Origin: an uncultured Chloroflexia bacterium
GTDB taxonomy: Bacteria; Chloroflexota; Limnocylindria; Limnocylindrales; CSP1-4
Direction: 5' to 3'
DNA: 64,000 bases
NCBI GenBank assembly: GCA_963813705.1
Contig: CAWFAH010000007.1
Coordinates: 32,336 to 96,335, forward strand
A model generated the notes under the pieces. The model did not search any database. It had not been told where the DNA came from and worked only from the letters and a program-made list of their open reading frames with translations. The position numbers were made by a program, and so were the translations under genes. This document shows positions 12,374-48,146 of this stretch, in pieces (positions within the stretch are counted from its first letter, which is position 1; every line of letters starts with the position of its first letter).

Positions 12374-12393
12374 CGGCTTCGTCCCGGTGCCGC

Positions 12394-29591: not shown

Positions 29592-30534
29592 TCAGTAGCC
29601 GACGGAGGCGAGGTAGGCGCCCCTCGGTTGCTCGTACAGCCCGATCGTCATCATGTTCATGACGAAGAACACGCGCAGCCCATGGGCGAGGCACCAGCGG
29701 AACAGCTCGGCGTTGCCGAGCGGGACGACGATCCCCGGCCGGTCCACGTGGCTCGCCGCGCCGATGAGCGCCGCGAGGTCGTCGTTCGTCTCCGCGACGG
29801 AGTGGTTGAAGTAGCCGATCCCGGTGGTGTAGCCGGTGATCCGGCCGAGTCGCTCGACGACCCGCCCCTTGCCCCGGGCGATCGCGTGGTCCACCTCGGC
29901 GGCGCGGTCGTGGCCGTGGACTCTGCCGGCACAGGGCGTTGCAGGCCGCGGCGTCCTCCGCGGTGGCGTGACGGACGTCGTAGCCGGGCAGCGCCAGCCG
30001 GAGCGGCTCGCCGTACATCGCGGCGAACGTCTCGCGGACGTCGAAGCCGAGCTTCGCGTAGAGGCTCAGCGACCGGTTGTGATAGCTGATCTGGAGCAGG
30101 CGGACGCCGGCCGCGTGCCGTTCGGCCGCCCGCTCGAGCATCGCCTCCATGAGCGCCCGGCCGACCCGCCGGTCCTGCGCCGCCGGATCGACGCTGACCG
30201 GGCCGATCGCGTGGATGGTCGACCGCTCGTCGAGGAAGCTGCTCCCCACGATCTGCCCGTCGCGTTCGGCCACGACCCCGAAGAAGCCGTGGTTCGTGAC
30301 GAGGCCGCGCATGCAGCCCGTGGCCACCGCGACGGTCGGGAAGTCCGGCGGAAAGCCGTGCTCCGCGGCAAGCGTCGCGAACGCCTCGTACAGGATCCGA
30401 CCGCAGGCCGGGACGTCGGCGGGGACCGCCTCGCGGAGGACGATCGAGCGATCGGCCCCGGCCCCGGCCGCCGGCTCGTTCGCCGCCGGCCCGGTCGACG
30501 CCGGCGGCGACGGGGCGAGGACGGTCGCCCTCAC
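29592..30534 (-). CDS. GNAT acetyltransferase, two-domain (frameshift near 29920)
   Basis: LREAVPAD, VDPAAQDRRVGRALM and LYAKLGF. C-terminal half is ORF 29592..29894. Confidence 0.82.
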
Positions 30535-32733
30535 CCCTTGACCTCGGCCGGCGACCCGTTCCCGGCCGCGACGCCGGCCAGCGCGAGCATCTGGCGGGCG
30601 CTGTAGCTCGGGCCCTCGTCGCGCGTCAGCTGGCCGAGGACGTCCATCGGCAGCTCGTCGAGGATCGCGTGGTTCGGGTTGAAGAGCAGGTGCTCGTCGA
30701 CGGCAAGGCCGAAGGCCGAGCCCTCCTTGACCGCCGCGAAGAGGTTACGCGGGCGGACCGCGTCACCGGCGTTGACGACGGGGATGCCGGCGGCTCGCAG
30801 ATCCGTGAACAGCCCCGTCTCCGAGCGGATGTGGCAGGTGACGACGTCGTCCGCCTCGATCGTGCGGAGGTTGAACCCGCTGTCCTGGATCACGACCTCG
30901 CCGTCGCGGATCTCGTGGACCGTGCTGCTCGTCACGATCGTGACCGGGAACTTGTAGGGCTTGCTGTCGAGGACCTCGGCGTCGCCCTGGGCGAACCGCT
31001 TGAGCTCGACGTAGCGGTGGATCACCTCGAGCTCCGAGCCGAACTCGCGCTGCTCGGTGACGATCGTGACCTGCTTGCCGATGCTGGCCAGGAAGGCCGC
31101 CGTGTCGGCCGCGGCGTAGCCGTCGCCCCACAGCAGCACCCGCGCCCCGAGCTTGCGCATGCGCCGACCACCGGGGTGGCACTCGCAGGCGACCTTGGGG
31201 CAGGCCATCGACTCCTCGAACGGGACGACCCGATCGGCGTCGCCGGCGACCTCGGGGACGTACGATGATCGCGCCCGTCGCGTTGAGGACGACGTCGAAC
31301 GCGCGCAGCTCCTCGACCGTCGGCCCGTGGTTCAGCCGGACGTCGACGTGGAGGTCGACGAGCTGATCCCGGATCCAGTCCAGGTACCAGCGCATCTTCT
31401 CCTTGCCCGGCACCAGGCAGACGTACTTCAGCGCCCCGCCGAGCTCGCCGGCCTTCTCGAACAGGGTGACCAGGTGGCCCCGCTCCGTCGCGATCCGGGC
31501 CGCCTCCATCCCGGCCGGCCCGCCGCCGACCACGGCGACCCGGACCGGTGTCGCCGTCCGGGTCATCCGGTCGTAGGCCGGGTTGCCGCAGGCGGCGTTG
31601 ATGGAGCAGGCGATCTCCTTCTTGGCCATGAGCGATTCCTGCCAGCAGCCGCCGAGGCACGAGATGCAGCGGCGGATCTGGCGGACCCGTCCGTACTGCG
31701 CCTTGACCGGCCAGTACGGATCGGCGAGGAGCTGGCGGGCGAGCCCGACGAGGTCGGTCTTGCCCTCGGCCAGGATCTGCTCGCAGTAGTCGGGATCGCG
31801 CAACGAGTGGCTGGTGATGACCGGGATCCGGACGACCTGCTTGACCGCCTCGGCGGCGTAGGTGGCCCAGCCCTGGGGATATTGCATCGGGTCGAACCCG
31901 GCGCCCGGGCTCTCCTGCATGCCCATCGACAGGTCGACCGCGGCGCAGCCGGCCCGCTCGAGCACGCGGGCGATCTCGATCCCCTCCTCGAGCCCGCGAC
32001 CGCCCTCGCACCACTCGTCGAACGAGTAGCGGACGAGGAGCGGGAAGCTCCGGCCGCACTTCTTCTGGATGGAATCGACCACGGCGAGCGGGAAGCGCAT
32101 CCGGTTCTCGAAGCTGCCACCGAAGCGGTCGGTGCGCATGTTGAGGAACGGGCTCATGAACTCGGACAGCAGGTAGCCGTGCGCCGCGTGGAGCTCGACG
32201 GCGTCGAAACCGGCCTGCTTGACCCGCCAGGCCGCCTCGCTGAACAGGTCGACGAGCTCGAGGATCTCGGCGATCGACGCCTCGCGGATCTCCTTGCCCT
32301 TCTCCTCGGCGTTCTCGTAGACGATCTCGTGACCGGCCGACCACGGCAGCTTGAGGACGCGGTCCGTCGCGCCCAGCGTGTTGTAGCGGGGGATCGCGCA
32401 CTGCCGTCCGGGATGCTGGAGCTGGACGGCGCAGGCCGCACCGTAGCGGTGCATGCTCTCGGCCAGGCGGGCCAGGCCGGGGATGTAGTTGTCCCCGTCG
32501 GCGACCAGGCAGGTCACGGTCGGCCGGCCGGTCGCCATGTCGGGCGTCGTGGCCCCGACGATGATGAAGCCGGAGCCGCCCCGGGCGATCTCGCCGTGGT
32601 GGTGGAGATCGCGCTCGCTGACCTCACCGTCGGCGTGCGACGAGCTGATGTCCGTGGGGACGTGGACGATCCGGTTCGGCAGGGTCAGGTTCCCCAGCTG
32701 GATCGGGCTGAAGAGGTTCGGGTACGGCGTCAT
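30531..32733 (-). CDS. NADH:flavin oxidoreductase (OYE-like TIM barrel + 4Fe-4S + FAD domain; frameshift near 31268)
   Basis: LFSPIQLG, ELHAAHGYLLSEF, NMRTDRFGGSFENR, CISCLGGC...CSIN and GGGPAGMEAA motifs. Confidence 0.9.
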
Positions 32734-32926
32734 GACGCTCTCCGATGGCTGGCCGCGAAGGAGGCGGATTCCCATCGGATCGTCCGGCTCGACGGCGCCC
32801 GCCGAAAGGGCCACATGGCTCGCCGGGGCCGGTCCGCGAGGCTCCCGGCGCGTCGCACGGTTGCCGGTACGCGGCCGGCCAGGGTCGCGTTCCGGCGGTT
32901 TCGCCGCGACGGAGTCGTGTACCATA

Positions 32927-32939
32927 ATCGATGATCGAT
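32927..32939. promoter_or_regulatory. palindromic operator ATCGAT-G-ATCGAT, candidate GntR site
   Basis: Perfect palindrome directly after TACCAT in the divergent intergenic region. Near-identical site at 46330. Confidence 0.6.
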
Positions 32940-32993
32940 GACCTTGCGAGATTGGTGATTCGCGGACCAGCAGAGACCGTGGAGGACCAGCGC

Positions 32994-34778
32994 GTGGCGG
33001 CGACGGAGGAGATCCTCGGCCAGTTCCTGGGTGACGAGACGTTCCCGGTGCACTGGGACTCCGAGGTCGAGAAGGACTTCTTCTGGGTCTACGACGACTT
33101 GCACATCCCGCACCCGGTCAGCCCGATGTTCTTCGACATCGGCGGCTGGTGGCTCAGCTGCGACCACATGTTCCGGCGGTTCGGGACCCCGTTCGCCGTC
33201 GACTGGTTGGCCAAGAACGTCAACGGCTACGTCTACACAACGGCCATCCCGGCCGATCCCGACCTCCGGATCGAGGGGACCGAGTACAGCTCGCGCTACG
33301 GCGCCCGGGTCCCGCGCGACGCGACGTTCGCCGCGACGATGGGCGCGTACCTGGACGTCGTCCTGCCGGTCTACGGTCGCGACTTCGCCGACTGGTGGAA
33401 GGACCGCCTGCGGCCCGAGATGGAGCGCAACTTCGCGTTCCTCGAGGCCCGCCTCGACGCGGCCAATGGGATGGACCTCGCGGACCTGGCCTGTCTCCTC
33501 GAGGACGCGATCGACATCCACGACCGGCACTGGAAGATCCACTGGATGCTCAACTTCGCCCAGCTGTCGGCGACGCTCAACCTGCGGGCGGTCATGGAGA
33601 AGACCCGCGGCGGGGTCGACGAGCAGCTGCTCGGCCGGCTGCAGAACTCGGCCTCGGACCGCAACTGGGACTCGATCGAGGCGCTGTGGCGGATGAAGAA
33701 CGAGGTCCGCGACGACCCCGAGCTGCGCTCCGCCTTCGCCTCGGGCGACACCGCCGAGATCGCCCGCTCGCTCCGGGCCACCGATCGGGGCCGGCGGTTC
33801 ATCGCCGAGCGGGTCGAGCCGTACCAGCGCGAGTTCGGCTGGCACGCCGTGTGGAGCCACGAGTTCATCTTCCCGACCGTGCGCGAGCAGATGGAACCCG
33901 TCCTCGAGCTCGTCAACGGCTACCTCACCACCGACTACGACTACCCGAGCGCCATCGAGGCGATGCGCCGCGACATCGCGGCCGCCTCGCAGGAGATCCT
34001 CGACGGGCTGACCGGTGAGGCGCTGGATGAGATGCGCGCGGCGAACGCGGTCAACCTGCGGATGGCGCCGCTCACGCCCGATCACCACTTCTACATCGAC
34101 CAGGGCGCGAACGCCCACCTGCGACTCGTCCTGCTGGCGGTCGGCCGGAAGCTGGTCGAGGCCGGCCGGCTCGACAGGCCCGACGACGTGATGTTCCTGC
34201 GCTACAACGAGCTGCGCAGCCTCATCGGCAAGGCCGACGCCATCGCGGCGCACGAGATCGTGGCCGCCCGCCGCCGGGAGCGCGACGCGGCCGAACGCCT
34301 CCATCCGCGCGACTGGGTCGGGACCGTCACGCCGTCGCAGCTGGCGTTCCCGTACCTCGTCAACTGGGGCTACCCGGACCGCTTCCACCAGCAGCAGTCC
34401 GACGATCAGCGGCTGATCACCGGGCTCGGCGCCTCGCCGGGCGTCATCGAGGGCATCGCCCGGGTCGTCCGCACGGTCGACGAGTTCGACGAGGTCCGCG
34501 ACGGCGACATCCTCGTCTGCCAGATGACCAACCCGGCCTGGGTCGTGCTGTTCACGAAGATCGCCGGGCTCGTCACCGATACCGGCGGCACGACCTCGCA
34601 TCCGGCCGTGCTCGCCCGCGAGTTCGGCATCCCGGCGGTCATCGGCACCTCGGTGGCGACGGCGCGGATCATGACCGGCGACCGGCTCCGCCTCGACGGG
34701 ACCGCCGGCCAGGTCGAGGTCCTCGAGCGCGCCACGCCCGGCTCGGCCGCCAAGCCGACCGCCGCGATCGGGCGCTGA
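32994..34778 (+). CDS. PEP-utilizing enzyme family protein (substrate-binding central domain + phospho-His mobile domain, no ATP-grasp)
   Basis: C-terminal GLGASPG..EG.ARV, GDILVC..T.P.W and DTGGTTSHPAVLAREFGIPAV. GTG start after GGAGG. Confidence 0.88.
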   Translation: MAATEEILGQFLGDETFPVHWDSEVEKDFFWVYDDLHIPHPVSPMFFDIGGWWLSCDHMFRRFGTPFAVDWLAKNVNGYVYTTAIPADPDLRIEGTEYSSRYGARVPRDATFAATMGAYLDVVLPVYGRDFADWWKDRLRPEMERNFAFLEARLDAANGMDLADLACLLEDAIDIHDRHWKIHWMLNFAQLSATLNLRAVMEKTRGGVDEQLLGRLQNSASDRNWDSIEALWRMKNEVRDDPELRSAFASGDTAEIARSLRATDRGRRFIAERVEPYQREFGWHAVWSHEFIFPTVREQMEPVLELVNGYLTTDYDYPSAIEAMRRDIAAASQEILDGLTGEALDEMRAANAVNLRMAPLTPDHHFYIDQGANAHLRLVLLAVGRKLVEAGRLDRPDDVMFLRYNELRSLIGKADAIAAHEIVAARRRERDAAERLHPRDWVGTVTPSQLAFPYLVNWGYPDRFHQQQSDDQRLITGLGASPGVIEGIARVVRTVDEFDEVRDGDILVCQMTNPAWVVLFTKIAGLVTDTGGTTSHPAVLAREFGIPAVIGTSVATARIMTGDRLRLDGTAGQVEVLERATPGSAAKPTAAIGR

Positions 34779-34786
34779 GGGACCCG

Positions 34787-35491
34787 ATGGCCATCGCCGG
34801 CGGGCTGTCCCGCAGCGTCCTGGCCGACCAGGTCAAGGACCGGATCCTGGAGGGCATCCTGAACGGCCACTACCCGCCGGACTCGCGGATCGTGGAAACC
34901 CAGGTGGCCCGCGAGCTCGGCACGAGCCAGGCGCCGGTGCGCGAGGCGCTGCGAGGGCTCGAGGCGCTCGGGGTCGTCGAGATCGCCCCGTTCCGCGGCG
35001 CGCGTGTCCGCCGCCCATCGCGGCGCGAGATCCTCGAGGCCTACGCGGTCCGCTCCACGCTCGAGGCGCTCGCGACCCGGCTCGCCGTCCCGCGGCTGAC
35101 CGACGCCGATCTGCGCCAGCTGCGCGGCCACCTCGACGCGATGCAGGCCGCCGCCCGCCGCGACGACGGCCGCGGCGTGGCCGAGGCCGACGCGCAGTTC
35201 CATGCCCGAATCGTCGAGCTGGCCGACAACGGCACCCTCCTCCGCGTCTGGCGGTCGCTCGAGCCGTTCTCCCGGACGTACCTCACGCTGGTCGTCCCGG
35301 GCGCCGACCCGCAGTGGTCGGCCGACCTGCACGCGCCGATCCTGGCCGCCCTCGAGCGACGGGATCCCCAGGCCGTGGTCGAGGCGCTCCAGCGGCACTT
35401 CGACGAGGTGAGCGAGAACATGGCGCGACGCTGGCCCGACGACGAGCCACCCGAGGCCGTCGGCCTGCCGCGGACCCGGCGACGCGCATGA
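34787..35491 (+). CDS. GntR-family (FadR/FCD) transcriptional regulator
   Basis: ETQVARELGTSQAPVREALRGLE wHTH and FH...ADN FCD domain. Confidence 0.93.
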   Translation: MAIAGGLSRSVLADQVKDRILEGILNGHYPPDSRIVETQVARELGTSQAPVREALRGLEALGVVEIAPFRGARVRRPSRREILEAYAVRSTLEALATRLAVPRLTDADLRQLRGHLDAMQAAARRDDGRGVAEADAQFHARIVELADNGTLLRVWRSLEPFSRTYLTLVVPGADPQWSADLHAPILAALERRDPQAVVEALQRHFDEVSENMARRWPDDEPPEAVGLPRTRRRA

Positions 35492-36375
35492 ACGGCACGC
35501 TCCAGCGATCCGAGGAGCTGTCGGCCGGCCCGGCGCGGCTCCGCATCGACGTCCACGGCTCGACCCCGGTCGAGCAGGTCCTCGAGGACATGAACTTCCT
35601 CAACTACCGGCTGGCCGACGTCCGGGTCTCGCCCGAGGTCAGCCTGCCCGAGCCAGACATCGTCTGGGACCAGGACGCCGCCAAGGACATCGCCTACGAC
35701 GGCCGGCGGATGGCGTTCTCCGGGCCGTGGCCGGCCGGGCCGATCCAGAAGGTCGTCGTGACGATGCTCGCGCTGCGCATGGAGGCGCTCGGGCTCCACC
35801 CGTTCCACGCCTCGGCCGTCCGCTACCGCGACCGGACCGTGCTCTTCCTCGGCGGCGAGTCGAACCACGGCAAGACGATGGGCCAGGTCGAGGCCTGCCG
35901 CCGGGGCGCGCTGCTCGTGTCGACGGAGACCACGGTCATCGACGAGCACGGTGTCGCGGTCGTCGGCTCGAAGGAGCCGTTCATCAAGAAGCGGACCGAG
36001 GGCACCGAGCGCGCCGACAAGGCGGCGCCGGACCGCGGGGTGGAGAAGTTCTTTGGGTCGATGCCGACCTGGAAGGTCCTTACCGATCCGAGCCCCATCG
36101 ACGTCGTCGTCGTCCCCGCGATCGACGGCAACTTCGACCCGTCGTGCGTCGAGATGATCCCGTTCGAGCGCCAGTTCCAGACCTTCCATTCGGTCCAGAA
36201 CTATTTCCTGCTCAACGAGCTGCTGGCGCCCGGCTTCGCGATGCCCGTCGTCGACACGCCGGCGCTGCGCGCGGCCCGCGCGGACTTCGTCCGGCGGTTC
36301 GCCGAGCGGCCCTACTTCTTCGTCCGGGCGGCCACCCCGCAGGTGCTCCTGGACGAGGTCGACCAGGTGCTGTAG
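35488..36375 (+). CDS. hypothetical P-loop protein, HPr kinase-like
   Basis: FHASAV...TVLFLGGESNHGKT resembles the HprK-related H-A-x-A-V...GxxxxGKT signature. ATGA overlap with gntR. Confidence 0.7.
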   Translation: MNGTLQRSEELSAGPARLRIDVHGSTPVEQVLEDMNFLNYRLADVRVSPEVSLPEPDIVWDQDAAKDIAYDGRRMAFSGPWPAGPIQKVVVTMLALRMEALGLHPFHASAVRYRDRTVLFLGGESNHGKTMGQVEACRRGALLVSTETTVIDEHGVAVVGSKEPFIKKRTEGTERADKAAPDRGVEKFFGSMPTWKVLTDPSPIDVVVVPAIDGNFDPSCVEMIPFERQFQTFHSVQNYFLLNELLAPGFAMPVVDTPALRAARADFVRRFAERPYFFVRAATPQVLLDEVDQVL

Positions 36376-36380
36376 GCCCG

Positions 36381-37241
36381 ATGCGCCCCTTCGACTACGA
36401 GCGGCCGGCCCACCTCGAGGACGCGCTCGCGCTGCTCGCCGAGCACGGCCCGGAGGCGCGCCTCCTCGCCGGCGGGACCGACCTGATCATCCGCCTGCGT
36501 GACGGGACGATCCAGCCGCGCCTCGTCGTCGACGTCAAAGGCATCGCCGAGCTCGACGGCGAGATCCGGGAGCGGGACGGATACCTCGAGATCGGCGCGA
36601 CGACGGTGATGACCGACATCGCCGCCGACGAGCGGATCCGGAGCGACCACCAGGCCCTCGCCGAAGCCGCGGCGGTCGTGGGTGCGGTCCAGATCCGGAA
36701 CCGGGCGACGCTCGCGGGCAACATCTGCAACGCCTCGCCGGCCGCGGACACGGTCCCGGCGCTGCTCGTCGACGATGCCCGGGTCGTCGCCACGGGTCCA
36801 GGCGGCCACCGGCGGATCCCGATCGACGCGTTCTTCGTGCGCTCCGGGGTCACCACGCTGGCCGCCGACGAGCTCGTCACGGCGATCGAGCTGCCGCGGC
36901 CGGCGACGCCGCGCGGGACGGTCCACGTCCGGCGGACCCGCCGGCGCGGTCACGATCTCGCCGCGGTCACCCTGGCCTGCGCGGTCGCGCCGGACGGGGT
37001 CACCCGGATCGCCTACGGCAGCCTCGGTCCGCGGCCGCTCCTCGTCGTCGACGCGTCCGGGCTGTTGGCCGATCCCTCGGCGAGCGACGACGCCAAGCGG
37101 GAACGCCTGGCCGCGCTGTTCGTCGACGCCAGCCCGTCGCCGACGTCGATGCGCTCGGGACCCGAGTATCGACTCGCGATGCTCCACGTCCTTGGGCTGC
37201 GCGCTGTGCACGCGGCCATCGAGCGCCTGGCGGCGGCCTGA
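36381..37241 (+). CDS. xanthine dehydrogenase family FAD-binding subunit
   Basis: FDYERP, AGGTDL and QIRNRATLAGNICNASPAAD motifs. Confidence 0.93.
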   Translation: MRPFDYERPAHLEDALALLAEHGPEARLLAGGTDLIIRLRDGTIQPRLVVDVKGIAELDGEIRERDGYLEIGATTVMTDIAADERIRSDHQALAEAAAVVGAVQIRNRATLAGNICNASPAADTVPALLVDDARVVATGPGGHRRIPIDAFFVRSGVTTLAADELVTAIELPRPATPRGTVHVRRTRRRGHDLAAVTLACAVAPDGVTRIAYGSLGPRPLLVVDASGLLADPSASDDAKRERLAALFVDASPSPTSMRSGPEYRLAMLHVLGLRAVHAAIERLAAA

Positions 37242-37243
37242 CG

Positions 37244-37714
37244 ATGGGTCAGCGGATTCAGCTGCTGGTCAACGGCCGCGAGCGGTCCGTGGAGGTCGAG
37301 GCGCACCACACCCTGCTCGAGGTCCTGCGCGACGACCTGGGGCTCACCGGGACCAAGGAATGCTGCCTGGTCGGGGAGTGTGGCGCCTGCACGGTCCTGC
37401 TCGACGGCCGGAGCGTGGACTCGTGCCTCGTGCTGGCGATCGAGGCCGACGGCGCGGCGGTGACGACGGTGGAGGGCCTCGCCTCGCCCGACGGCGCGCT
37501 CGATCCGCTCCAGCAGGCGTTCCTGGACCATGGGGCGGCGCAGTGCGGGTTCTGCATCCCCGGCCAGCTGGTCTCGGCGCGGGCGCTGCTCGCCGCCACG
37601 CCGCGGCCCAGCCGCGCCGAGGTCGAGGAGGGCCTGGCCGGCAACCTTTGCCGGTGCGCCGGCTACGAGCAGATCATCGAGGCGGTCCTCGACGCCGCGG
37701 AGGCCGCACCGTGA
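37244..37714 (+). CDS. xanthine dehydrogenase family (2Fe-2S) subunit
   Basis: GTKECCLVGECGACTV, QCGFCIPG and GNLCRC motifs. Confidence 0.95.
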   Translation: MGQRIQLLVNGRERSVEVEAHHTLLEVLRDDLGLTGTKECCLVGECGACTVLLDGRSVDSCLVLAIEADGAAVTTVEGLASPDGALDPLQQAFLDHGAAQCGFCIPGQLVSARALLAATPRPSRAEVEEGLAGNLCRCAGYEQIIEAVLDAAEAAP

Positions 37715-39984
37715 TCGGCGCCTCGCCCGCGCGGGTCGGTGGACGGGACCGCGTCACCGGCCAGCAAGCCTATGTCGCCGACATCCATCTCGAGGGCGAG
37801 CTCCACGTCAAGCTCGTGACCGTCGAGCACGCTCGGGCACGGATCGATGCGATCGACGCGAGCGCCGCCCTCGCCGTCCCGGGCGTCCGGGCGGTGCTGA
37901 CCGCGCCGGACCTGCCACGGCCGATGCCCCGCTTCGGGCCGCAGTTCAGCGACCGCCCGGTGATCGCCGTGGGCGAGGTCCATTACCACGGCGAACCGGT
38001 CGCGGCCGTCGCGGCGGAGACGCTCGACGCGGCCGAGGCTGCCGCCCGGCTGGTCCGGGTCGCCTGCGAACCCCTCCCGGCGGTCGCCTCGATCGAGGCG
38101 GCCCTGGCCCCGGATGCGCCGCTCGTGCAGGATCCCGCCCTGCGCCCCGGCGATCCGCTCGCGCTGACCAACGTCCTGCGCGAGCACCGCTACGGCTGGG
38201 GCGACGTGGACGCCGCCGAGGTCGGGGCGGACGTCGTCGTCGAAGGCCGCTACGCCTTCCCGATGGTCACCCAGTTCGCCATCGAACCGCACGCGTTCCT
38301 GGCCGCGCCGGACGGTGACGGCATCGCCGTCTGGAGCTCGATCCAGCATCCGTACTGGCTCCAGCGGGTCGTCGCCGGGGTGCTCGGGATGCCGCTCGCG
38401 AGGGTCCGCGTCTACGCCCCCGATCCGGGCGGCGCCTTCGGGGGCAAGCAGCACGCCAAGTACGAGCCACTGGTGGCCTTCCTCGCGCTCCGCACCGGGC
38501 GTCCCGTCCGGCTCGTGCTGTCGCTCGAGGAGACGTTCCAGGCCGTCCGCCGCGGCGCATCGAGCGTCCATGTCCGAACCGGCTTCCGCTCCGACGGGAC
38601 GATCGTGTTCCGCGACACCCGCGCGGACTACCTGATCGGCGCCTATGCCGATATCGCCGACCGGACGGTCGGCAAGGGCAGCTTCAGCTCGAACGGACCC
38701 TACAGCGTGCCCGCCGTGCGGATCTTCGCTCGCAGCATCCTGTCGCACACGGTCCCCTCGACGGCATTCCGCGGGTTCGGCAATCCCCAGCAGATCTGGG
38801 CGGTCGAATCGAACATGAACGAGGCCGCGCAGGTCCTCGGCATCGATCCCCTGGAGCTCCGGCTGCGGAACCTGGCCCGGCCCGGCGACGCGTTCATCCC
38901 CGGCGACACGCCGGCGGACGGCGACTGGCGCGTGGCGCTGGAGCGGGCGGCCGAGCTCATCGGGTGGGGGACACCGCCGCCGTCCGGTCGTGGCCGCGGC
39001 GTCGCGGTCGGGCTCAAGTCCGGCCCGACGACCGGTCTCTCCCACGCCACCGTGCGGCTCCTGGCGGACGGCAGCGCGGTCCTCTACTCGGGCACGTCCG
39101 ACATGGGCCAGGGGGCGCGGACGATCTTCGCCCAGATCGTCGCCGAAGAGCTCGGCGTGCCGATCGACGCGATCACGGTGGTGATGGGCGACACGGCCGT
39201 CGTGCCGTACGACCAGCAGACCTCGGCCAGTCGCTCGACCGTCATCATGGGCCGCGCCATCCAGGGCGCCTGCCGCGACATCCAGGCGAAGATCCGGGAG
39301 ATGGCCGCGCGTCTTGAGTCGGTCGACGAGGACGAGGTGGCCGTCGCGCACGGCGAGGTCCGGATCGGTGATCGGGTCCTCCCGCTGCGCGATGTCCTCA
39401 TCCGCGGGCTCGGCCGGCTCGGCGGCGAGGTCATCGGGCTCGGGGAAGGGCGCAAGGAGGCGGACCCCGAGCATCCGCTCGGTGGCACGGCGGCGTTCTT
39501 CGAGTTCAACGCGACGGCCGTCGAGGTCGAGGTCGACCGCGAGACGGGCGACATCACGGTCACCCGCCATGTCACGGTGTCGGACGTCGGCAAGGCGCTC
39601 AACCCGACCCAGGTGCGTGGCCAGGACGAGGGCGCCGCGATCATGGGCCTCGGCCACACCCTGATGGAGCACTACATTCTCGACGAGACCGGCCGGATCC
39701 GGAACCTCGGGGCGATCGACTACCGGATCCCGACGAGCATGGACCTGCCCCTGGAGATGGTCAGCGACATCGTCGAGAACGGGGACGGGCCGGGCCCGTA
39801 CGGCGCGAAGGGGATGAGCGAGGGTGCCCTGCTGCCGGTCGCGCCCGCCGTAGCCGCGGCCGTCCGCGACGCCACCGGCGTCGTCATCCGCGACCTGCCG
39901 CTTACCCCGGAGCGGGTCTGGCGTGCGCTTCGCGACCAGGCGGCGCGACCGGAGCCGGGACCGGCCGAGCCGGTCGTCCGATGA
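37711..39984 (+). CDS. xanthine dehydrogenase family molybdopterin-binding subunit
   Basis: GGAFGGK, AFRGFGNPQ, SDMGQG, SASRST, DVGKALNP and GAKGMSE motifs. Confidence 0.94.
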   Translation: MIGASPARVGGRDRVTGQQAYVADIHLEGELHVKLVTVEHARARIDAIDASAALAVPGVRAVLTAPDLPRPMPRFGPQFSDRPVIAVGEVHYHGEPVAAVAAETLDAAEAAARLVRVACEPLPAVASIEAALAPDAPLVQDPALRPGDPLALTNVLREHRYGWGDVDAAEVGADVVVEGRYAFPMVTQFAIEPHAFLAAPDGDGIAVWSSIQHPYWLQRVVAGVLGMPLARVRVYAPDPGGAFGGKQHAKYEPLVAFLALRTGRPVRLVLSLEETFQAVRRGASSVHVRTGFRSDGTIVFRDTRADYLIGAYADIADRTVGKGSFSSNGPYSVPAVRIFARSILSHTVPSTAFRGFGNPQQIWAVESNMNEAAQVLGIDPLELRLRNLARPGDAFIPGDTPADGDWRVALERAAELIGWGTPPPSGRGRGVAVGLKSGPTTGLSHATVRLLADGSAVLYSGTSDMGQGARTIFAQIVAEELGVPIDAITVVMGDTAVVPYDQQTSASRSTVIMGRAIQGACRDIQAKIREMAARLESVDEDEVAVAHGEVRIGDRVLPLRDVLIRGLGRLGGEVIGLGEGRKEADPEHPLGGTAAFFEFNATAVEVEVDRETGDITVTRHVTVSDVGKALNPTQVRGQDEGAAIMGLGHTLMEHYILDETGRIRNLGAIDYRIPTSMDLPLEMVSDIVENGDGPGPYGAKGMSEGALLPVAPAVAAAVRDATGVVIRDLPLTPERVWRALRDQAARPEPGPAEPVVR

Positions 39985-42122
39985 CCTACACGTACGCCCT
40001 CGACGCCCCGCACTCGACGACGCTCGCCGAGGCGAAGGCGCTCGTCGGCGGCAAGGCCGCCAACCTCGGGGTCATGGCCCGCGAGCTCGGCCTGCCGGTC
40101 CCGCCGGGCTTCGTCATCACCACCGCGGCGTGCCGGACCTTCCTGGCGGAGGGCTGGCCGGCCGGTCTCGACGACGAGCTGCCCGAGCGGATGGCCGCGA
40201 TCGAGGCGGTCGTCGACCGACGCTTTGGCGACCCGTCCGACCCGCTGCTCGTGAGCGTCCGCTCGGGTGCGCCGGTGTCGATGCCCGGGATGATGGACAC
40301 GATCCTCGACCTCGGCCTGAACGACGCCACGACCGCCGGCCTCGCCCGGGCGTCGGGCGACCAGGCGTTCGCCCGCGCGTGTCGCGAGCGGTTCGAGGCG
40401 AGCTTCCGCTCGATCGTCGGCGCCCCCGACGTCCCGGCCGACCCGTGGGACCAGCTCCGCCTGGCGATCGAAGCCGTGTTCCGCTCGTGGAACAGCGACC
40501 GCGCCCGGACCTATCGCCGCAAGGAGGGCATCCCCGATGACCTCGGGACCGCCGTGACCGTCCAGGCGATGGTCTTCGGCAACCGCGGCCCGACCTCGGC
40601 CACCGGCGTGCTGTTCACCCGGAACCCGGCAACGGGCGCGCCATCGCTGTACGGCGACGTCCTGTTCGACGCCCAGGGCGAGGACGTGGTCGCCGGCACC
40701 CACCGCACCGAGCCGATTGCCGTCCTCGACGACCGCCTGCCGGCTGCCGCGGCCGACCTGCGCGAGTACGCCGACCGCCTCGAGCGGCTTTTCGCCGACA
40801 TGTGCGACATCGAGTTCACGATCGAGGACGGCCGGCTCTGGATGCTCCAGGTCCGGGTTGGCAAGCGGAGCCCGCAGGCCGCGCTGCGGATCGCGGTCGA
40901 CATGGCCGACGATCCGGCGTTCCCCCTGTCGCGCGCGGAGGCGGTGGAGCGAGTGCGGCCGTTGCTCGCTCAGCCACCGACGGTGGCCAGCCTCCACGCA
41001 TCCGCCGCCCCACCGCTGGCCCGCGGGCTGCCGGCGTCGCCGGGGATCGCGAGCGGCCCGATCGCCACGGACCCCGAGGCGGCCCAGGCCGCCGCCGAGA
41101 CCGGACCGGCGGCCATCCTCGTCCGGGCCGAGACGTCGCCCGACGACGTCCACGGGATGGCCCGCGCGGCCGGGATCCTGACCTCCCGCGGCGGCCTCGC
41201 CAGTCACGCCGCGGTCGTCGCCCGCGGCTGGGCCATCCCGGCCGTGGTCGGGGCGGGCGAGGTCGACGTGCGCGACGGCCGGGTGGTCATCGGCGAGCGG
41301 ACGCTGAAGGCCGGGGACGTCATCACGATCGACGGGACGACCGGCGAGGTGTTCGAGGGGACCGTGGCGGGGGCGACAGAGGTCGTGCCGGAGGCCGCCA
41401 CGCTGCTGGCCTGGGCTCGCGAGCTGGGCATCGCCATCACGGCGGAGCCGATCGCGGGCGCACCCGCTGCCCCCGCACAGCCGGCTCCCGCATCGGCGGC
41501 CCGCGAGGTCACCCCGGACCGCTGCCTCCGGGCGATCGCGATCAAGGGCTTCGCACCGCTCCAGGGCCTCGCCGACGCGGTCCTGTCGACGCCGGCGAAG
41601 GTCGAACCGATCGTCGAACGGCTCGTCGCGGACGGCCTGGTCACCACCGTCGCCGGGGCGTACAAGCTGACCGACGCCGGGACGACGAGGTCAGCCGCGC
41701 TCGTCGCCGAGGAGCGCTCCAGCTGGGGGACCGACGCCGCCGACGCCGCCCTCGACGGTTTCCTCGACCTCGACCGTCGGATGAAGGACACCGTGACCGC
41801 CTGGCAGCTCCGCGACATCGAGGCCCAGGTCGTCAACGACCACGCCGACGCCGCCTACGACGCGGCCGTGCTCGACCGACTCGCCGGCCTGCACGCCGAC
41901 GCGACCGCCTGGCTCGGGCCGCTCGAGGCCGGTTGCCCGCGGCTGGCGGACTTCGGCGCTCGCCTCGGCCGGGCGCTCGAGGCGGCGCTCGCGGGCGACG
42001 GGCGGTACGTCGCGTCACCCCGGGTCGACAGCTACCACGGGATCTGGTTCGAGCTCCACGAGGACCTGATCCAGCTGGCCGGCCGCAGCCGGGCGGACGA
42101 GGTCGCCGCCGGGCGCGCGTAG
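39981..42122 (+). CDS. pyruvate phosphate dikinase-like protein (ATP-grasp + phospho-His) fused to a C-terminal wHTH/Rv1126c-like domain
   Basis: GGKAANL, PVPPGF, SVRSGAPVSMPGMMDT, VQAMVFGN, AQGEDVVAG, DIEFTIE and GGLASHAAVVAR. No TIM barrel. Tail has WQLR...NDH.D..YD and DSYHGIWFELHEDLI. Confidence 0.88.
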   Translation: MTYTYALDAPHSTTLAEAKALVGGKAANLGVMARELGLPVPPGFVITTAACRTFLAEGWPAGLDDELPERMAAIEAVVDRRFGDPSDPLLVSVRSGAPVSMPGMMDTILDLGLNDATTAGLARASGDQAFARACRERFEASFRSIVGAPDVPADPWDQLRLAIEAVFRSWNSDRARTYRRKEGIPDDLGTAVTVQAMVFGNRGPTSATGVLFTRNPATGAPSLYGDVLFDAQGEDVVAGTHRTEPIAVLDDRLPAAAADLREYADRLERLFADMCDIEFTIEDGRLWMLQVRVGKRSPQAALRIAVDMADDPAFPLSRAEAVERVRPLLAQPPTVASLHASAAPPLARGLPASPGIASGPIATDPEAAQAAAETGPAAILVRAETSPDDVHGMARAAGILTSRGGLASHAAVVARGWAIPAVVGAGEVDVRDGRVVIGERTLKAGDVITIDGTTGEVFEGTVAGATEVVPEAATLLAWARELGIAITAEPIAGAPAAPAQPAPASAAREVTPDRCLRAIAIKGFAPLQGLADAVLSTPAKVEPIVERLVADGLVTTVAGAYKLTDAGTTRSAALVAEERSSWGTDAADAALDGFLDLDRRMKDTVTAWQLRDIEAQVVNDHADAAYDAAVLDRLAGLHADATAWLGPLEAGCPRLADFGARLGRALEAALAGDGRYVASPRVDSYHGIWFELHEDLIQLAGRSRADEVAAGRA

Positions 42123-42176
42123 CCCAATCTAGGCGAGATCACGCTCCCGGACCCTCCGATTTCGTACCCTGACCGC

Positions 42177-42521
42177 ATGGCGTATCCGAGCCGAGAGCAG
42201 CTGGAAGTATGCCGCCGGGTGGGTGCTCTACCTGATGTCCCACTGCCGGACCAAGTGGTCGGTCTGGGGCCTATCGGCGCTCTGCCCGTCAACGGCCTTC
42301 GCCATCCGCCCGACGGACAATCCTGCGGGTGGTATCTCTGGACCGGCGTGGAGATCGACCAATCGGATGATTCGTTCTTCCGCCCGATCCATGTGTCGCA
42401 CTTGGGCGACCACGACCCCGACGTGTTGCCGTATCTCGCCCTTCCCGCGGGCTGGAGGTTCCAGATCGGCCCCGGCCATGAGGACATCTGGTTCGACAGC
42501 GGGCTACTCGCAGCCGAGTGA
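42177..42521 (+). CDS. Imm33-like immunity domain protein
   Basis: NGLRHP...GWYLWTG...FFRPIHVSHL...YLALPAGWRF pattern (recalled family, not searched). Leaderless TACCCT. Confidence 0.7.
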   Translation: MAYPSREQLEVCRRVGALPDVPLPDQVVGLGPIGALPVNGLRHPPDGQSCGWYLWTGVEIDQSDDSFFRPIHVSHLGDHDPDVLPYLALPAGWRFQIGPGHEDIWFDSGLLAAE

Positions 42522-42565
42522 CGTTCCCGCACGCTGGCGGACCGCGAGGTTGCTACGCTGGAACC

Positions 42566-42913
42566 GTGACCTGGACCGACGATGACGGCGTGATGGCGGA
42601 ACTCCGGAGCTGGCTCGTCGAGCAGGGCTTCGTCGTACTGTCGGACCTCTACGACGCCGACCATTTTGGCAACCAGCTTGTCGAACTGGCTCGTCCCATC
42701 GCCGTCCGGCTCATCCGCGATCGCGGTCAGTGGGGGATCGAAATTGCCGGTCAAGATGGTGTCTGGTCGCCGCTGCTCGCCTCGGTCGACGCGACGCCTG
42801 GTAGGCGAGCCGAGGTTCTGTCCGCCGCCGATCAGAGCGAGGCCCTACGGGCTCTCCTGCCACAGATGGAGCGACGAGCCTCCGGTGACGCGGAGCAAGA
42901 CGCGCCCGAGTGA
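42566..42913 (+). CDS. hypothetical protein
   Basis: ORF 42518..42913. GTG 6 nt after TACGCT. Contains FGNQLV...RLIRDRGQW. Confidence 0.6.
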   Translation: MTWTDDDGVMAELRSWLVEQGFVVLSDLYDADHFGNQLVELARPIAVRLIRDRGQWGIEIAGQDGVWSPLLASVDATPGRRAEVLSAADQSEALRALLPQMERRASGDAEQDAPE

Positions 42914-42960
42914 CATTGGCACACTCCACGGACCGGCCTTTGCTGTAGCCTCGATCGGAT

Positions 42961-43329
42961 ATGTCGCGACTTGGGTCTCCTGGAGATGGCTTCGCGCCGC
43001 TCGACGTGGGGTCAGTCGGTATTCTGACGGCACTTGTCTCGGAGCCGTTTCCGGGCAGAGACGAGATCGCCCTGCAACTCGCGGTCGCCCGCAGTCGACG
43101 AATCGACGACCACGGATGTCTGGCGCTCTCAGCTCGTGATGCGCCGCGGGCGGCTGTCCTTCGGCGGATCCCGATCGAGGCCGAGGCCGACGACCTCGAC
43201 GGCATGACCATCCACATCCTGCTCCACGTGGTCGACGGCTACATCGACGAACTGGAGCTGTACCGGGAAGACGGGCGAGCATTCCTCGCGCCGGTCAGGA
43301 GCGAGGCCATCCGCATCGTGGCGTTCTGA
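42961..43329 (+). CDS. hypothetical protein (DUF6984-like)
   Basis: FPGRDE..QL...EAEADDLDG..IHILLHVVDGYIDELELYREDG pattern (recalled family, not searched). Confidence 0.65.
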   Translation: MSRLGSPGDGFAPLDVGSVGILTALVSEPFPGRDEIALQLAVARSRRIDDHGCLALSARDAPRAAVLRRIPIEAEADDLDGMTIHILLHVVDGYIDELELYREDGRAFLAPVRSEAIRIVAF

Positions 43330-43572
43330 CCAACACCCGGTCAGGTGACAGGCACTCGCTCTGGCGTCATTGACGCACGCCATTCGAGGCTGGCGTGACC
43401 TCGCCGTCACTTGACTACCAACGGCACTTGGCAGGACCCGGGGTCGCCGCGATGCTCGGTGAGGCCGCGGGGACGATGCGCAAGGCCATGGTTTGCCACC
43501 CCGGACAGCTCCAGGCTACGTGCGAGACGCTGGATGCATGTGGCAGGTCGGCAGGCCCCAGAGACGCGAGGG

Positions 43573-44328
43573 ATGAAGATGAATTCGAACCGAAGGATCG
43601 CCGTCGTCGCGGGAGTGCTGTTCATCATCGCGACCGTTGCAGACCTGATCTCGCGCGTCGTGTTCGTGCAACCAATTCTGAGCGAGCCGGTTGACTTCAC
43701 CAAGATCTCGGCGAACGAAAACCAGGTCCTCCTGGGAGCGATCTTTCTGTTCATCGGGGCTGCTGCGGCTGCTGGCATTGCCATTGCGCTGTACCCGGTA
43801 TTGAGGAAACACAACGAAGGTCTGGCCCTTGGATCGGTCGCCTTCAGGCTCATCGAGGGAGCGCTCTATATCGGCATCGTTGTCTGCCTGCTGCTGCTGG
43901 TGACCTTGAGCCAGGAATCGGCGAACGCAGGAGCTGCGGCTTCATCGGCCTACGTGGTCCCTGCTGCGCTGTTGATGGCAGCCCGTGATTCGTTGGGCGA
44001 AGTGGCGGTGCTGGCCTTTGGCCTCGGAGCGCTCATGTACTACTGGGTGTTCTATCAATCGCGACTCGTCCCTCGATGGCTGTCGGTCTGGGGTCTTGTC
44101 GCCATCGCGTCGCTCATGGTGTCCGGCATCCTCGTCATCCTCGGTCTTGCCGAGCCGATGTCGACGACCCAGGTCGTCCTGGCTCTTCCCATCTTCCTGC
44201 AGGAGATGGTCCTGGCCGTCTGGCTGATCGCCAAGGGCTTCAACCCATCGGCCATCGCTCCCGAGTCTGCCGGTGACACCTCCGGGTGGCGGGCCACTGC
44301 GAGCACTGCGTCGGGGTCAGCAGCGTAG
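43573..44328 (+). CDS. DUF4386-like multi-pass membrane protein
   Basis: RIAVVAGVLFIIAT, LYPVLRK, FRLIE, SRLVPRWLSVWG and EMVLAVWLIAKGF motifs. Confidence 0.85.
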   Translation: MKMNSNRRIAVVAGVLFIIATVADLISRVVFVQPILSEPVDFTKISANENQVLLGAIFLFIGAAAAAGIAIALYPVLRKHNEGLALGSVAFRLIEGALYIGIVVCLLLLVTLSQESANAGAAASSAYVVPAALLMAARDSLGEVAVLAFGLGALMYYWVFYQSRLVPRWLSVWGLVAIASLMVSGILVILGLAEPMSTTQVVLALPIFLQEMVLAVWLIAKGFNPSAIAPESAGDTSGWRATASTASGSAA

Positions 44329-44340
44329 AAGGCGACACCT

Positions 44341-44378
44341 GCGGGAGGGTCAGCGTCGCAAGGCGCTGACCTTCTCGC
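44341..44378 (+). terminator. long stem-loop (GCAA tetraloop) downstream of the DUF4386 gene
   Basis: GCGGGAGGGTCAGCGTC-GCAA-GGCGCTGACCTTCTCGC, 17-bp stem with GU pairs, no U-tract. Confidence 0.55.
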
Positions 44379-44552
44379 TAGCGCGCGGATCGACGGATGC
44401 CCCCGGCTCAGCGGGTACCACGGACTCAAGGCCATTTCCAGGACGTCATCGCCGCCTCCCCCTGCCGGTCGGGTCGACTCAATCACTGGGTTCACTGAAC
44501 GCATGCCGTTCGGAGTGGCGGGCCCGGGATGGCTCAGGTCGTTCCCGGTCGG

Positions 44553-45435
44553 TCAGCGGCCCTTCGCATACCCAACGGCTGTGAGCTTGTCCCAGAGCGA
44601 GCCGGCGTTGTTGTTCTGGATGTGATCCATCATGTAGCCCTGCCCGACGTCGACCGGGCCGAACGCGTCGTCGAAGCGGACCCGGGCGATCGTCTCGTCG
44701 CGCGTCCAGCCATTCGCCACCGCGTCCGCGACGGCCGCCTTCCACTGGAGCAGGACGGATCGCTGCGTGTCGACGTAGGCGAGCGTCTGGACGGGGCCGT
44801 GACCGGGGACCAGGTGGTCGACGTCCGGCAATGCGCGGATCCGCTCGAGCGCCTCGAGCCACTGGTCGACGTTCGAGGTCATGAGCCAGGTCTGGCACTC
44901 GGAGAAGATCGTGTCGCCGGTGAAGACGGCCCGCTCCTCCGGCACGTGCACCGCGAGCTGGCCAGGCGTGTGGCCGGGCGTGTGGAGCAGGTGGAACGTG
45001 TGGTCGCCGACGCGCAGGGTCAGGTCGCCGGTGAAGACGACCGTTCCGCGCGGCAGCGCAGCGTAGTACGTCGTCGCGATCGGGCAGGAGCGCCGCACCG
45101 TCGGGGTCGTCGGTGGGGATGGCCTCGAGCGCATAGGCGAACGGGTCGAGGGCGGCGTTGGGGTCCATGAAGATGTCCCACAGCGCCTGGTGGTTGACGA
45201 TCTCGCCGGCGCCGCGGAACCAGTGGTTGCCGAAGATGTGGTCGACGTGGTTCTCGGTGTTGATGAGGTAGCGGATCGGGCCGTGCGACTCGGCCTCCTG
45301 GCGCATCGCGACGGCGCGCGTCGGGAGCTGCGGCGTGTCGATGACCACGACGCCGTCGGACGTCGTCACGAAGCTCGGGTTGCAGCCGCGCAGCTTCGTG
45401 TTGGTGAAGACGTTGGGGGTGACCTGCTCCATCAT
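44553..45435 (-). CDS. MBL-fold metallo-hydrolase (cyclase-like; frameshift near 45070)
   Basis: VIDTP, variant motif TENHVDHIFGN, HTPGHT, FTGD and VPGHG. Confidence 0.87.
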
Positions 45436-48144: not shown

Positions 48145-48146
48145 CG

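Follow-up and report, generated by a model that had tools for sequence, protein, structure and literature searches.

Why should two incomplete dikinases and a molybdenum (Mo) enzyme be encoded together in one tightly packed run of genes? The question is raised by nucleotides 32994-42122 of a 64,000-nt stretch, here called the window, from an uncultured Limnocylindria bacterium (contig CAWFAH010000007.1 of assembly GCA_963813705.1, forward-strand positions 32,336 to 96,335), in which seven genes, all on the + strand, follow one another at spacings of 8, −4, 5, 2, −4 and −4 nt. We propose, with a probability of about one half, that they form a real catabolic operon of soil Limnocylindria and their relatives, in which a split small-molecule dikinase is coupled to a Mo oxidoreductase of the xanthine dehydrogenase (XDH) family. 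This proposal is built on the domain content of the genes, their conservation and co-occurrence, the folds of their products and the invariance of the catalytic residues, all of which are documented below.

Gene content and recurrence of the cluster

The cluster consists of the following genes (window coordinates, strand, product, basis of the assignment):

32994..34778, +, P1, a PpsA/HpeH-type phosphoenolpyruvate (PEP)-utilizing protein, 594 aa (Pfam, NCBIfam)
34787..35491, +, GntR/FCD transcription regulator, 234 aa (Pfam GntR and FCD)
35488..36375, +, P-loop protein (HprKl), 295 aa (AlphaFold2 fold; no Pfam or NCBIfam match)
36381..37241, +, XDH-family FAD subunit, 286 aa (Pfam FAD_binding_5 and CO_deh_flav_C)
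37244..37714, +, XDH-family 2x[2Fe-2S] (FeS) subunit, 156 aa (Pfam Fer2 and Fer2_2)
37711..39984, +, XDH-family molybdopterin (Mo) subunit, 757 aa (Pfam Ald_Xan_dh_C, MoCoBD_1 and MoCoBD_2)
39981..41411, +, short pyruvate, phosphate dikinase (short PPDK, 713 aa), N-terminal part with ATP-grasp and swivel domain (Pfam PPDK_N and PEP-utilizers)
41412..42122, +, short PPDK, C-terminal extension with linker, MarR-like winged helix and four-helix bundle (structural model)

Each of the seven frames is supported by the codon-position GC profile (the G+C of the window is ~72%), so that the co-oriented, closely spaced arrangement described by the sequence-only reading (spacings of −4 to 8 nt) stands. 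The GTG start of P1 has GGAGGA upstream and is common to the orthologues in the alignment. The Pfam and NCBIfam domain maps also agree with that reading in finding a His-carrier protein without ATP-grasp domain, a PPDK-like protein without pyruvate domain, and XDH subunits; these last belong to the XDH/carbon monoxide dehydrogenase (CODH) family with Pfam E-values of 1e-25 to 4e-69, every hit exceeding its gathering score.

The recurrence of the cluster was studied in a census of one genome per species, with the C-terminal domain of the short PPDK as the anchor. At least 587 stretches encode this anchor; neighbours were counted in the best 80 of them, of which 51 are 18 kb or longer (the long loci). 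In the long loci P1 lies near the anchor in 46 of 51, the FAD and FeS subunits in 48 each, the Mo subunit in 47, the P-loop gene in 38, GntR in 32 (it is missing between P1 and the P-loop gene in loci L049 and L050), and a convergent gene for a metallo-beta-lactamase-fold (MBL) hydrolase in 45. The order P1-(GntR)-P-loop-FAD-FeS-Mo is kept in all six relatives that were fetched, and synteny was seen in five further loci. The neighbourhood co-occurrence that had been put forward as a check on the system is thus found across genomes.

A sample of 121 genomes of the class gives a similar picture: P1 is present in 24, the P-loop gene in 22, the C-terminal domain of the short PPDK in 22, all three in 20 and none in 97, and neither the P-loop gene nor the PPDK domain ever occurs without P1. 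Of the 24 genomes with P1, the two in which the PPDK domain was not found are assemblies of 190 contigs, while the two without a P-loop gene keep P1, the XDH subunits and the short PPDK together. Since the gene order recurs in 6/6 relatives and the genes co-occur in the class sample, the arrangement exceeds chance. The earlier idea that the two incomplete dikinases belong together is borne out by their joint presence (22 of 24 P1-bearing genomes, 46 of 51 long loci) and by the retention of the catalytic His in both. Carriers are mostly Chloroflexota, with some records from Acidimicrobiia, Dormibacterota and Methylomirabilota, and names on homologues of the window proteins include Candidatus Limnocylindrales; the lineage of the window itself we take to be aerobic. 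Strong matches to the P-loop gene occur in 8 of 301 genomes of the phylum, the window's own genome (3.17 Mb, 11 contigs, completeness 83%) being counted. The pairing of a Mo enzyme with a dikinase is no curiosity of one plasmid.

As for the Mo enzyme, its Mo subunit has 4-hydroxybenzoyl-CoA reductase alpha as the nearest solved sequence (1rm6_A, 316 bits; the next, from CODH, XDH and quinoline oxidoreductase, score ~230) and also as the best NCBIfam model (4hydrxCoA_A), at 445 bits against a cut-off of 994.6. The other equivalogs are below their cut-offs too (XdhA 439.8 vs 780, XdhB 168 vs 310, XdhC 188 vs 217), and TIGR03195 matches the FAD subunit in two stretches at 125 bits (cut-off 404.6). 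The FAD subunit of 4-hydroxybenzoyl-CoA reductase carries a Cys-rich insert for a [4Fe-4S] cluster; that of the window has only two Cys among its 286 residues and therefore lacks such an insert. Identity with 4-hydroxybenzoyl-CoA reductase or xanthine dehydrogenase was accordingly rejected, for the former on the missing insert as well as on the scores. A database protein of 1235 aa (P0300) contains both MoCo-binding domains together with PPDK_N/PEP-utilizers; it is either a true fusion of the two proteins or the product of a frameshift in the 4 nt that the Mo subunit and short PPDK genes share.

The dikinase parts, the P-loop protein and their distant relatives

The sole Pfam domain of P1 is PEP-utilizers (residues 523-593 of the 615-aa open reading frame, ORF), PPDK_N not being found, and the swivel histidine of this C-terminal phospho-His domain is His536 (codon 34599-34601). 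Among the NCBIfam models P1 aligns with the C-terminal halves of RedH (459-879), PigC and the rifampin phosphotransferase Rph (RPH; 568-864), and it covers nearly the full length of the 'hypothetical' PRK08296 models, in all cases below cut-off; the best sequence match in the PDB is 5fbs_A (E 6e-30). All orthologues keep the His, and the motif GG.[TV]SHPAVL around it is a recurrent one among them. The absence of ATP-grasp, an RPH-like substrate-binding region and a C-terminal swivel Ser-His together constitute the make-up of PpsA/HpeH.

The short PPDK passes the model NF004531 (518.9 bits against a cut-off of 456; residues 16-466 aligned to 20-463 of 534), also known as PRK05878 and titled 'pyruvate, phosphate dikinase', of which we take Rv1127c (VadK) to be a member. 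Its swivel histidine is His409 (codon 41205-41207), no PEP/pyruvate domain is present, and GG[LMF]ASHAAVVARGW is found in 79 of 79 orthologue hits. A canonical pyruvate, phosphate dikinase was rejected, as PEP-utilizers_C was not found and TIGR01828 gave 516 bits against a cut-off of 843. The genome, at 83% completeness, contains three PEP-utilizers domains in all and one other PPDK_N gene, a 948-aa frame with PPDK_N and PEP-utilizers on contig C8, which is taken to be an ordinary PPDK (its pyruvate domain was not checked); apart from this frame no other ATP-grasp partner was seen.

Residues 478-713 of the short PPDK (model pLDDT 86.7) are predicted to form a disordered Ala/Pro linker followed by a MarR-like winged helix (~509-582) and a four-helix bundle (~580-701), with the invariant motifs NDH.D and DSYH..WFELHED. 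The winged helix, for which there is no Pfam match, superimposes on MarR-family chains with Z 10-12 and a root-mean-square deviation (rmsd) of 1.2-2.0 Å over ~72 residues; the bundle resembles only generic helical bundles, and a Foldseek search with the whole extension returned nothing at E<=0.001. Plasmids of Diaphorobacter, Mycobacterium branderi and Streptomyces atratus encode this domain (35-41% identity) by itself, as a protein of ~200 aa whose gene directly adjoins that of a short PPDK (506-548 aa). In Diaphorobacter and M. branderi these genes also have an adjacent P1-like gene, and the Diaphorobacter short PPDK also matches NF004531. In Rhodococcus sp. LW-XY12 the domain forms the end of an 'AMP-binding protein'. 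A search for a stand-alone form gave, among the best 120 matches, almost exclusively pieces of the fused form at 60% identity or more, mostly named PPDK, and a 205-aa hypothetical protein of Thermomicrobium roseum is unrelated by profile comparison (E 0.35). What is new here is a short PPDK that passes the VadK-type model and carries fused to it a MarR-like/four-helix domain that is elsewhere a separate gene.

The P-loop protein has no match in Pfam or NCBIfam at E<=0.01, and its AlphaFold2 model (pLDDT 90) is, we believe, the first indication that it folds as a miniature PEP carboxykinase (PEPCK). Over its whole length, which corresponds to PEPCK residues ~91-452, the model superimposes on ATP-PEPCK 1xkv_A (Z 12.3, rmsd 4.8 Å, 247 residues), while the C-terminal half (residues 102-295) superimposes on the catalytic domain of HPr kinase/phosphorylase (HprK/P) 2qmh_A (Z 10.7, rmsd 3.7 Å, 122 residues). 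The label 'HPr-kinase-like' given to it earlier was thus right about the P-loop and about a fold shared with HprK/P; the protein as a whole is nearer to ATP-PEPCK and hits neither family by sequence. Aligned by hhalign, the PEPCK of the same genome shows a local and weak similarity to it (E 0.001, probability 21%), over a stretch in which the P-loop, the His that precedes it and a G..G..QK motif correspond. The protein differs from PEPCK in size (295 aa vs ~530) and from both families in sequence (identity 12-18%), in the replacement of the acidic pair after the P-loop, and in the lack of an HPr or oxaloacetate context at the cluster, a gene for HPr elsewhere in the genome not having been looked for. 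Both identities were rejected, HPr kinase/phosphorylase because there is no Hpr_kinase_C sequence match and the likeness is in the fold only, ATP-dependent PEPCK in view of the size and of a likeness confined to the fold and the weak profile match.

The family has no name: in a 50%-identity library only 183 cluster representatives reach E<=0.001, 34 columns are invariant among 24 sequences, and the best 120 of 2840 matches, all at least 80% identical, include none with a Pfam domain or a functional name. A tblastn search of 72,556 plasmid records found no match, and the family profile is unrelated to the unnamed proteins beside the dikinase genes of Diaphorobacter and M. branderi (E 0.33 and 0.6). 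The prediction of a complex of P1 with the P-loop protein gave no answer either way (0.00 against a mark of 0.32, controls not made). It was also considered whether the P-loop protein might regulate P1 in the manner of PSRP/PDRP, by way of the Thr that precedes the P1 histidine by two residues; this was rejected, as the presence of the gene is not correlated with the residue at that position (Thr in 42 loci, of which 29 have the P-loop gene; Val in 13, of which 11 have it); the corresponding residue of the short PPDK is Ala in 79/79 hits. The same P1 position separates two subtypes of XDH-type clusters, recognized in L097, L101, L104, L107, L115, L119-L121, L130 and relatives: one has Val, and its Mo subunit and short PPDK genes are separated by those for a cyclase and a Zn-dependent alcohol dehydrogenase (Zn-ADH); the window belongs to the other, with Thr and neither of these two genes.

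Distant relatives of the cluster were sought in metagenomes with four P-loop homologues 36-44% identical to the window protein. The scan gave 44 loci (G+C 0.33-0.68), 28 of them 8 kb or longer. A tungsten (W)/Mo enzyme of the aldehyde oxidoreductase (AOR) family, labelled AFOR, lies near the P-loop gene in 16 of these 28 and an XDH-type Mo subunit in 8, never together, so that 24/28 have one or the other pterin enzyme. A dikinase part (P1, ATP-grasp or short PPDK) is near in 21 of 28, and over all 44 loci the recognized genes on the same strand and within 300 nt of the P-loop gene are ATP-grasp (13), P1 (10) and cupin (10), in orders such as grasp-HprKl-P1, P1-HprKl-cupin-AFOR and grasp-HprKl-FAD-FeS-Mo. 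A quick tree built from 84 homologues separates 17 of them (14 AFOR, 3 neither) from the other 67 (52 XDH, 2 AFOR, 13 neither) with an approximate likelihood-ratio support (aLRT) of 98, and the pterin-enzyme labels require 10 changes, against a mean of 29 when shuffled. To find distant P-loop homologues beside dikinase parts and either XDH-family or W/Mo AOR-family enzymes is new. Because these loci keep dikinase parts while the pterin enzyme is swapped, gene neighbourhood suggests that the P-loop protein belongs with the dikinase and not with the Mo enzyme, and that the system may work with either of two unrelated pterin enzymes.

The donor is exchanged as well. In 14 of the 28 long metagenome loci a PpsB/HpeI-type protein with ATP-grasp only takes the place of the short PPDK, and in the related cluster on the plasmid of T. 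roseum DSM 5159 (P1 49%, Mo 39% and FeS 53% identity) the ATP-grasp partner is a 323-aa protein of PEP synthase (PEPS)/RPH type without His domain. From this replacement it follows that the short PPDK sits in the place of the donor of a two-component dikinase. UPF0261, which is the phenol kinase family MarK, recurs beside the clusters together with a PEP-hydrolase-like gene. Among the AFOR-type clusters, one (L164) has three PEP-hydrolase-like genes, a RuBisCO-like protein and a full-length PPDK, another (L171) has GAPDH-like and phosphoglycerate kinase (PGK) genes, and a third (L159) adjoins a PCNA_N match at 11993-12772 (−), which suggests that some carriers are archaea. A literature search found no paper on a cluster joining a PEP-utilizing enzyme, an aldehyde ferredoxin oxidoreductase, a cyclase and a cupin.

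Two further genes flank the cluster, the first of them beyond the stretch that the sequence-only reading had delimited:

44479..45435, −, convergent MBL-fold hydrolase (Pfam Lactamase_B over two frames)
30763-32814, −, divergent flavoenzyme of Old Yellow Enzyme (OYE)/FadH type (frame shift near 31250)

The C-terminal part of the OYE carries on in the frame of 30531-31208, and the MBL gene likewise reads frameshifted in the window. Contigs assembled from short reads of soil runs lack one base at each place: at 31268 one contig of run X1 is one base short and a spanning contig of run X2 shows one gap, and at 45069-45071 the short-read contigs are one base short. Both breaks are therefore probably assembly indel errors and not broken genes. 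An OYE lies near the cluster in just one of the 51 long loci, and the part that it had been given in the pathway is not supported. In the OYE-P1 intergenic region (32847-32918) the contigs of two soil runs (X2, X3) have 39 other letters in place of 70 bases, a variant that likely falls in the promoter region; a scan of 32600-42700 for promoters and terminators returned 0 promoter-like sites and 1 terminator-like site, not above shuffles. Between the short PPDK and the MBL gene lie 2.4 kb (42123-44552, G+C 0.65) with no clear coding signal, in which Rfam (searched over 42000-44700) finds nothing at E<=0.01; positions 42930-43380, with a DUF6984 ORF at 43006-43329, share 97% identity with L052, the closest relative, as against just 88% for the flanking genes. 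Farther on, at 47132-51402 (−), there is a second XDH/CODH-like cluster with CoxG (SRPBCC, 50884-51402), FAD and 2Fe-2S subunits and a Mo subunit in two ORFs (47132-47647, 47644-48882), perhaps another indel.

Proposed reactions and rival explanations

The chemistry that we infer, in each of its steps as in the class of substrate, is the following. By analogy with VadK, the short PPDK would take the beta-phosphate of ATP onto His409, from where it would pass to P1, either via His536 or directly at the substrate pocket of P1. The small substrate of P1, probably a hydroxylated (hetero)aromatic, would then be phosphorylated at an enol or hydroxyl oxygen, and the Mo enzyme would oxidise the phosphorylated product or, possibly, dehydroxylate it. 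Removal of the phosphate at a later point may fall to the MBL hydrolase or to the P-loop protein with its PEPCK/HprK-like fold, which would be accessory to the dikinase, as its third part, and not to the Mo enzyme; the GntR/FCD regulator would control the operon. The gene logic would be that of the 3hpd cluster of Ensifer adhaerens HP1, compared below, with a substrate different from 3-hydroxypyridine.

A number of observations weigh against this scheme. Both P1 and the short PPDK keep a phospho-His domain, for which it offers no explanation. The P-loop gene is dispensable to the cluster: 13 of the 51 long loci lack it, and in 2 of the 24 P1-bearing genomes it was not found. A cyclase and a Zn-ADH, both missing from the window, each occur in 12 of 51 long loci. 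In the 3hpd system 2,5-dihydroxypyridine is the sole product detected, as far as the accessible part of the preprint states (bioRxiv 10.1101/2020.01.08.898148), and the available part of the VadK study proposes for that protein the role of a regulatory kinase that binds enzymes (of the methylcitrate cycle), not of a small-molecule donor (PMC13400623). Moreover, the usual substrates of the AOR-family enzymes that replace the Mo enzyme in distant relatives are aldehydes, and the XDH/AOR swap points in this direction. The neighbours of the relatives, which include a split transketolase, a transaldolase-like protein, aldehyde dehydrogenase, an IolM-like Zn-ADH and an IolO-like TIM barrel, and further isopropylmalate synthase (IPMS)/citramalate-synthase-like, GAPDH-like, PGK and RuBisCO-like proteins, are no less compatible with a substrate of sugar or aldehyde type than with an aromatic one.

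These last points lead to a rather different chemistry, in which P1 and its ATP-grasp donor, by analogy with PEP synthase and pyruvate, make a phosphoenol from a sugar- or cyclitol-derived carbonyl substrate. The phosphoenol would be used by the mini-PEPCK (for example in a (de)carboxylation with ADP/ATP), and the pterin enzyme would oxidise an aldehyde to the acid. Aldehyde oxidation is indeed the textbook reaction shared by the two unrelated pterin families that swap (of the 28 long metagenome loci, 16 have AFOR and 8 the XDH type), the XDH subunits match glyceraldehyde dehydrogenase models (alpha at 341 bits), the P-loop protein keeps PEPCK-type motifs, and the split transketolase, transaldolase-like, aldehyde dehydrogenase, Iol-like, citramalate-synthase-like, GAPDH-like, PGK and RuBisCO-like neighbours speak for it as well. 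We nevertheless consider it unlikely: in the accessible accounts the characterised split dikinases of the subfamily all act on phenols (PMC12167813) and the single genetically tested system of Mo enzyme and dikinase acts on a hydroxypyridine, the nearest solved relative of the Mo subunit is an aromatic dehydroxylase, the UPF0261 neighbours come from a phenol kinase family, and the likeness to PEPCK consists of a fold and a local profile match with a probability of 21%. Alternatively, no intermediate would be phosphorylated at all, and the short PPDK would be a VadK-like His kinase that senses ATP or a ligand by its MarR-like domain and switches the Mo enzyme or P1 on and off, through binding or protein phosphorylation. 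The passing of the NF004531 cut-off, the match of the Diaphorobacter protein to the same model, and the predicted resemblance of the fused winged helix to ligand-sensing MarR domains agree with this, as do the reported regulation of methylcitrate-cycle enzymes by interaction with VadK, in the part of that study available (PMC13400623), and the fact that a phosphorylated intermediate was not seen in 3hpd cells in the accessible part of the preprint (bioRxiv 10.1101/2020.01.08.898148). The large RPH/RedH-type region of P1, however, binds the phosphorylated small molecule in every studied member covered by the accounts at hand, a protein with ATP-grasp only, incapable of autophosphorylation, replaces the short PPDK in related clusters, and translational coupling to catabolic enzymes is more typical of pathway parts; we therefore regard a purely regulatory role as very unlikely.

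The reactions might also run in the reductive direction, with phosphate as the leaving group and the Mo enzyme turning aryl-O-P into aryl-H and phosphate. Phenylphosphate synthase and 4-hydroxybenzoyl-CoA reductase are parts of one pathway in Thauera, the alpha subunit of that reductase is both the nearest solved sequence (316 bits vs ~230 for CODH, XDH and quinoline oxidoreductase) and the best NCBIfam model for the Mo subunit, and the partner in anaerobes is an AOR-family enzyme with ferredoxin-like subunits. Against this, the Cys-rich 4Fe-4S insert by which low-potential electrons are fed in is missing from the FAD subunit, the NCBIfam scores are far under the cut-offs (445 vs 994), no CoA ligase was seen among the recognized genes of the Limnocylindria loci, and the 3hpd enzyme works as a hydroxylase according to the accessible part of its description; a reductive role appears highly improbable.

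The coupling of a split dikinase to an oxidising Mo enzyme, which we prefer, can be extended to a more general proposal. The P-loop protein would found a mini-PEPCK family and be the third part of a widespread phosphate-cycling system that, at the cost of ATP, phosphorylates enol or (hetero)aryl oxygens and so makes otherwise inert rings or carbonyls accessible to pterin enzymes, of the XDH family in aerobes and of the W/Mo AOR family in anaerobes, perhaps including archaea; it would either recover the phosphate as ATP or process a pyrophospho-His intermediate. That all of this holds together is distinctly doubtful. If true, it would point to phosphate donation to PpsA-type acceptors as the ancestral job of VadK-type short PPDKs. 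For the degradation of aromatic compounds or heterocycles in soil, it would be a new principle that substrates are activated for Mo/W enzymes by phosphorylation.

Comparison with known systems

These results can be set against described systems, first of all the 3hpd cluster of E. adhaerens HP1. According to the accessible part of the preprint (bioRxiv 10.1101/2020.01.08.898148), HpdA1-4 alone does not convert 3-hydroxypyridine but does so together with orf9 ('pyruvate-phosphate dikinase') and orf10 ('PEP-utilizing protein'), mutants in orf9 or orf10 do not grow, and both lie next to hpdA in the majority of 21 genera. Compared by published gene descriptions, and not by sequence, both clusters have an XDH-family Mo enzyme beside PPDK-like and PEP-utilizing genes and a GntR regulator nearby, and in 3hpd both dikinase genes are genetically needed for the Mo-dependent step. 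HpdA has a fourth, separate SRPBCC subunit and lies with maleamate-pathway genes; the window cluster has neither, and among the Pfam-annotated ORFs at 16-59 kb none was found, except for the CoxG at 50884-51402 of the second XDH-like cluster. The window cluster has instead the PEPCK/HprK-like gene, the fused MarR-like/four-helix domain and the MBL neighbour. The sequence-only reading had known of no pathway with this combination and had named a match to a characterised one as ground against its novelty; because the 3hpd cluster has been described with a Mo hydroxylase and an essential PEP-utilizing/PPDK pair, at least in the part of the preprint at hand, the claim of novelty falls in part, on that very ground. 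The preprint of 2020 is the only publication that our literature search found to join 3-hydroxypyridine, a PEP-utilizing/dikinase protein and molybdenum. The need of a Mo hydroxylase for such a pair has thus been known from genetics since 2020, its chemistry is not understood, and the present data add that the pairing is retained when the pterin enzyme is exchanged for one of an unrelated family. They also add two parts, the unnamed PEPCK/HprK-like family and the MarR-like/four-helix domain, fused or separate.

The likeness to 4-hydroxybenzoyl-CoA reductase lies in three subunits with the domains of the family and in its alpha subunit being the nearest solved sequence; the difference lies in the FAD subunit without 4Fe-4S insert and in scores far under the cut-offs. 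With regard to the dikinase, the analogy with the split phenylphosphate synthase that had been drawn from the gene content fits the two-component subfamily PpsAB/CreHI/HpeHI, whose members phosphorylate phenols by means of a His swivel in the accessible part of its description (PMC12167813, JBC 2025). P1 has the make-up of HpeH/PpsA, with the swivel His preceded by Ser and the ATP-grasp domain on a separate protein, as in PpsAB(C)/CreHI/HpeHI (AcvAB), though it is under the cut-off of every NCBIfam model. The donor is different: HpeI/PpsB is an ATP-grasp-only protein of PEPS/RPH type, whereas that of the window is of PPDK type, keeps a swivel His and carries an extra domain. So is the downstream enzyme, of Mo hydroxylase type in the window and a carboxylase or P450 in those systems.

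This donor can be compared with VadK (Rv1127c) of M. tuberculosis, which in the available part of the 2026 study autophosphorylates His422 with ATP/Mg and with which Rv1126c, its small operon partner, co-purifies, coming off only in 2 M NaCl (PMC13400623). Both are truncated PPDKs with ATP-grasp and catalytic His, without pyruvate domain and with a small partner protein. In the window, however, a partner-like domain is fused (it was matched to the small plasmid genes of M. branderi, Diaphorobacter and Streptomyces), and a PpsA-type acceptor, without which VadK has been described, adjoins together with the Mo enzyme. Taken together, the data connect three literatures that, in the portions available, do not cite one another: those of the two-component phenol dikinases, of the 3hpd cluster and of VadK.

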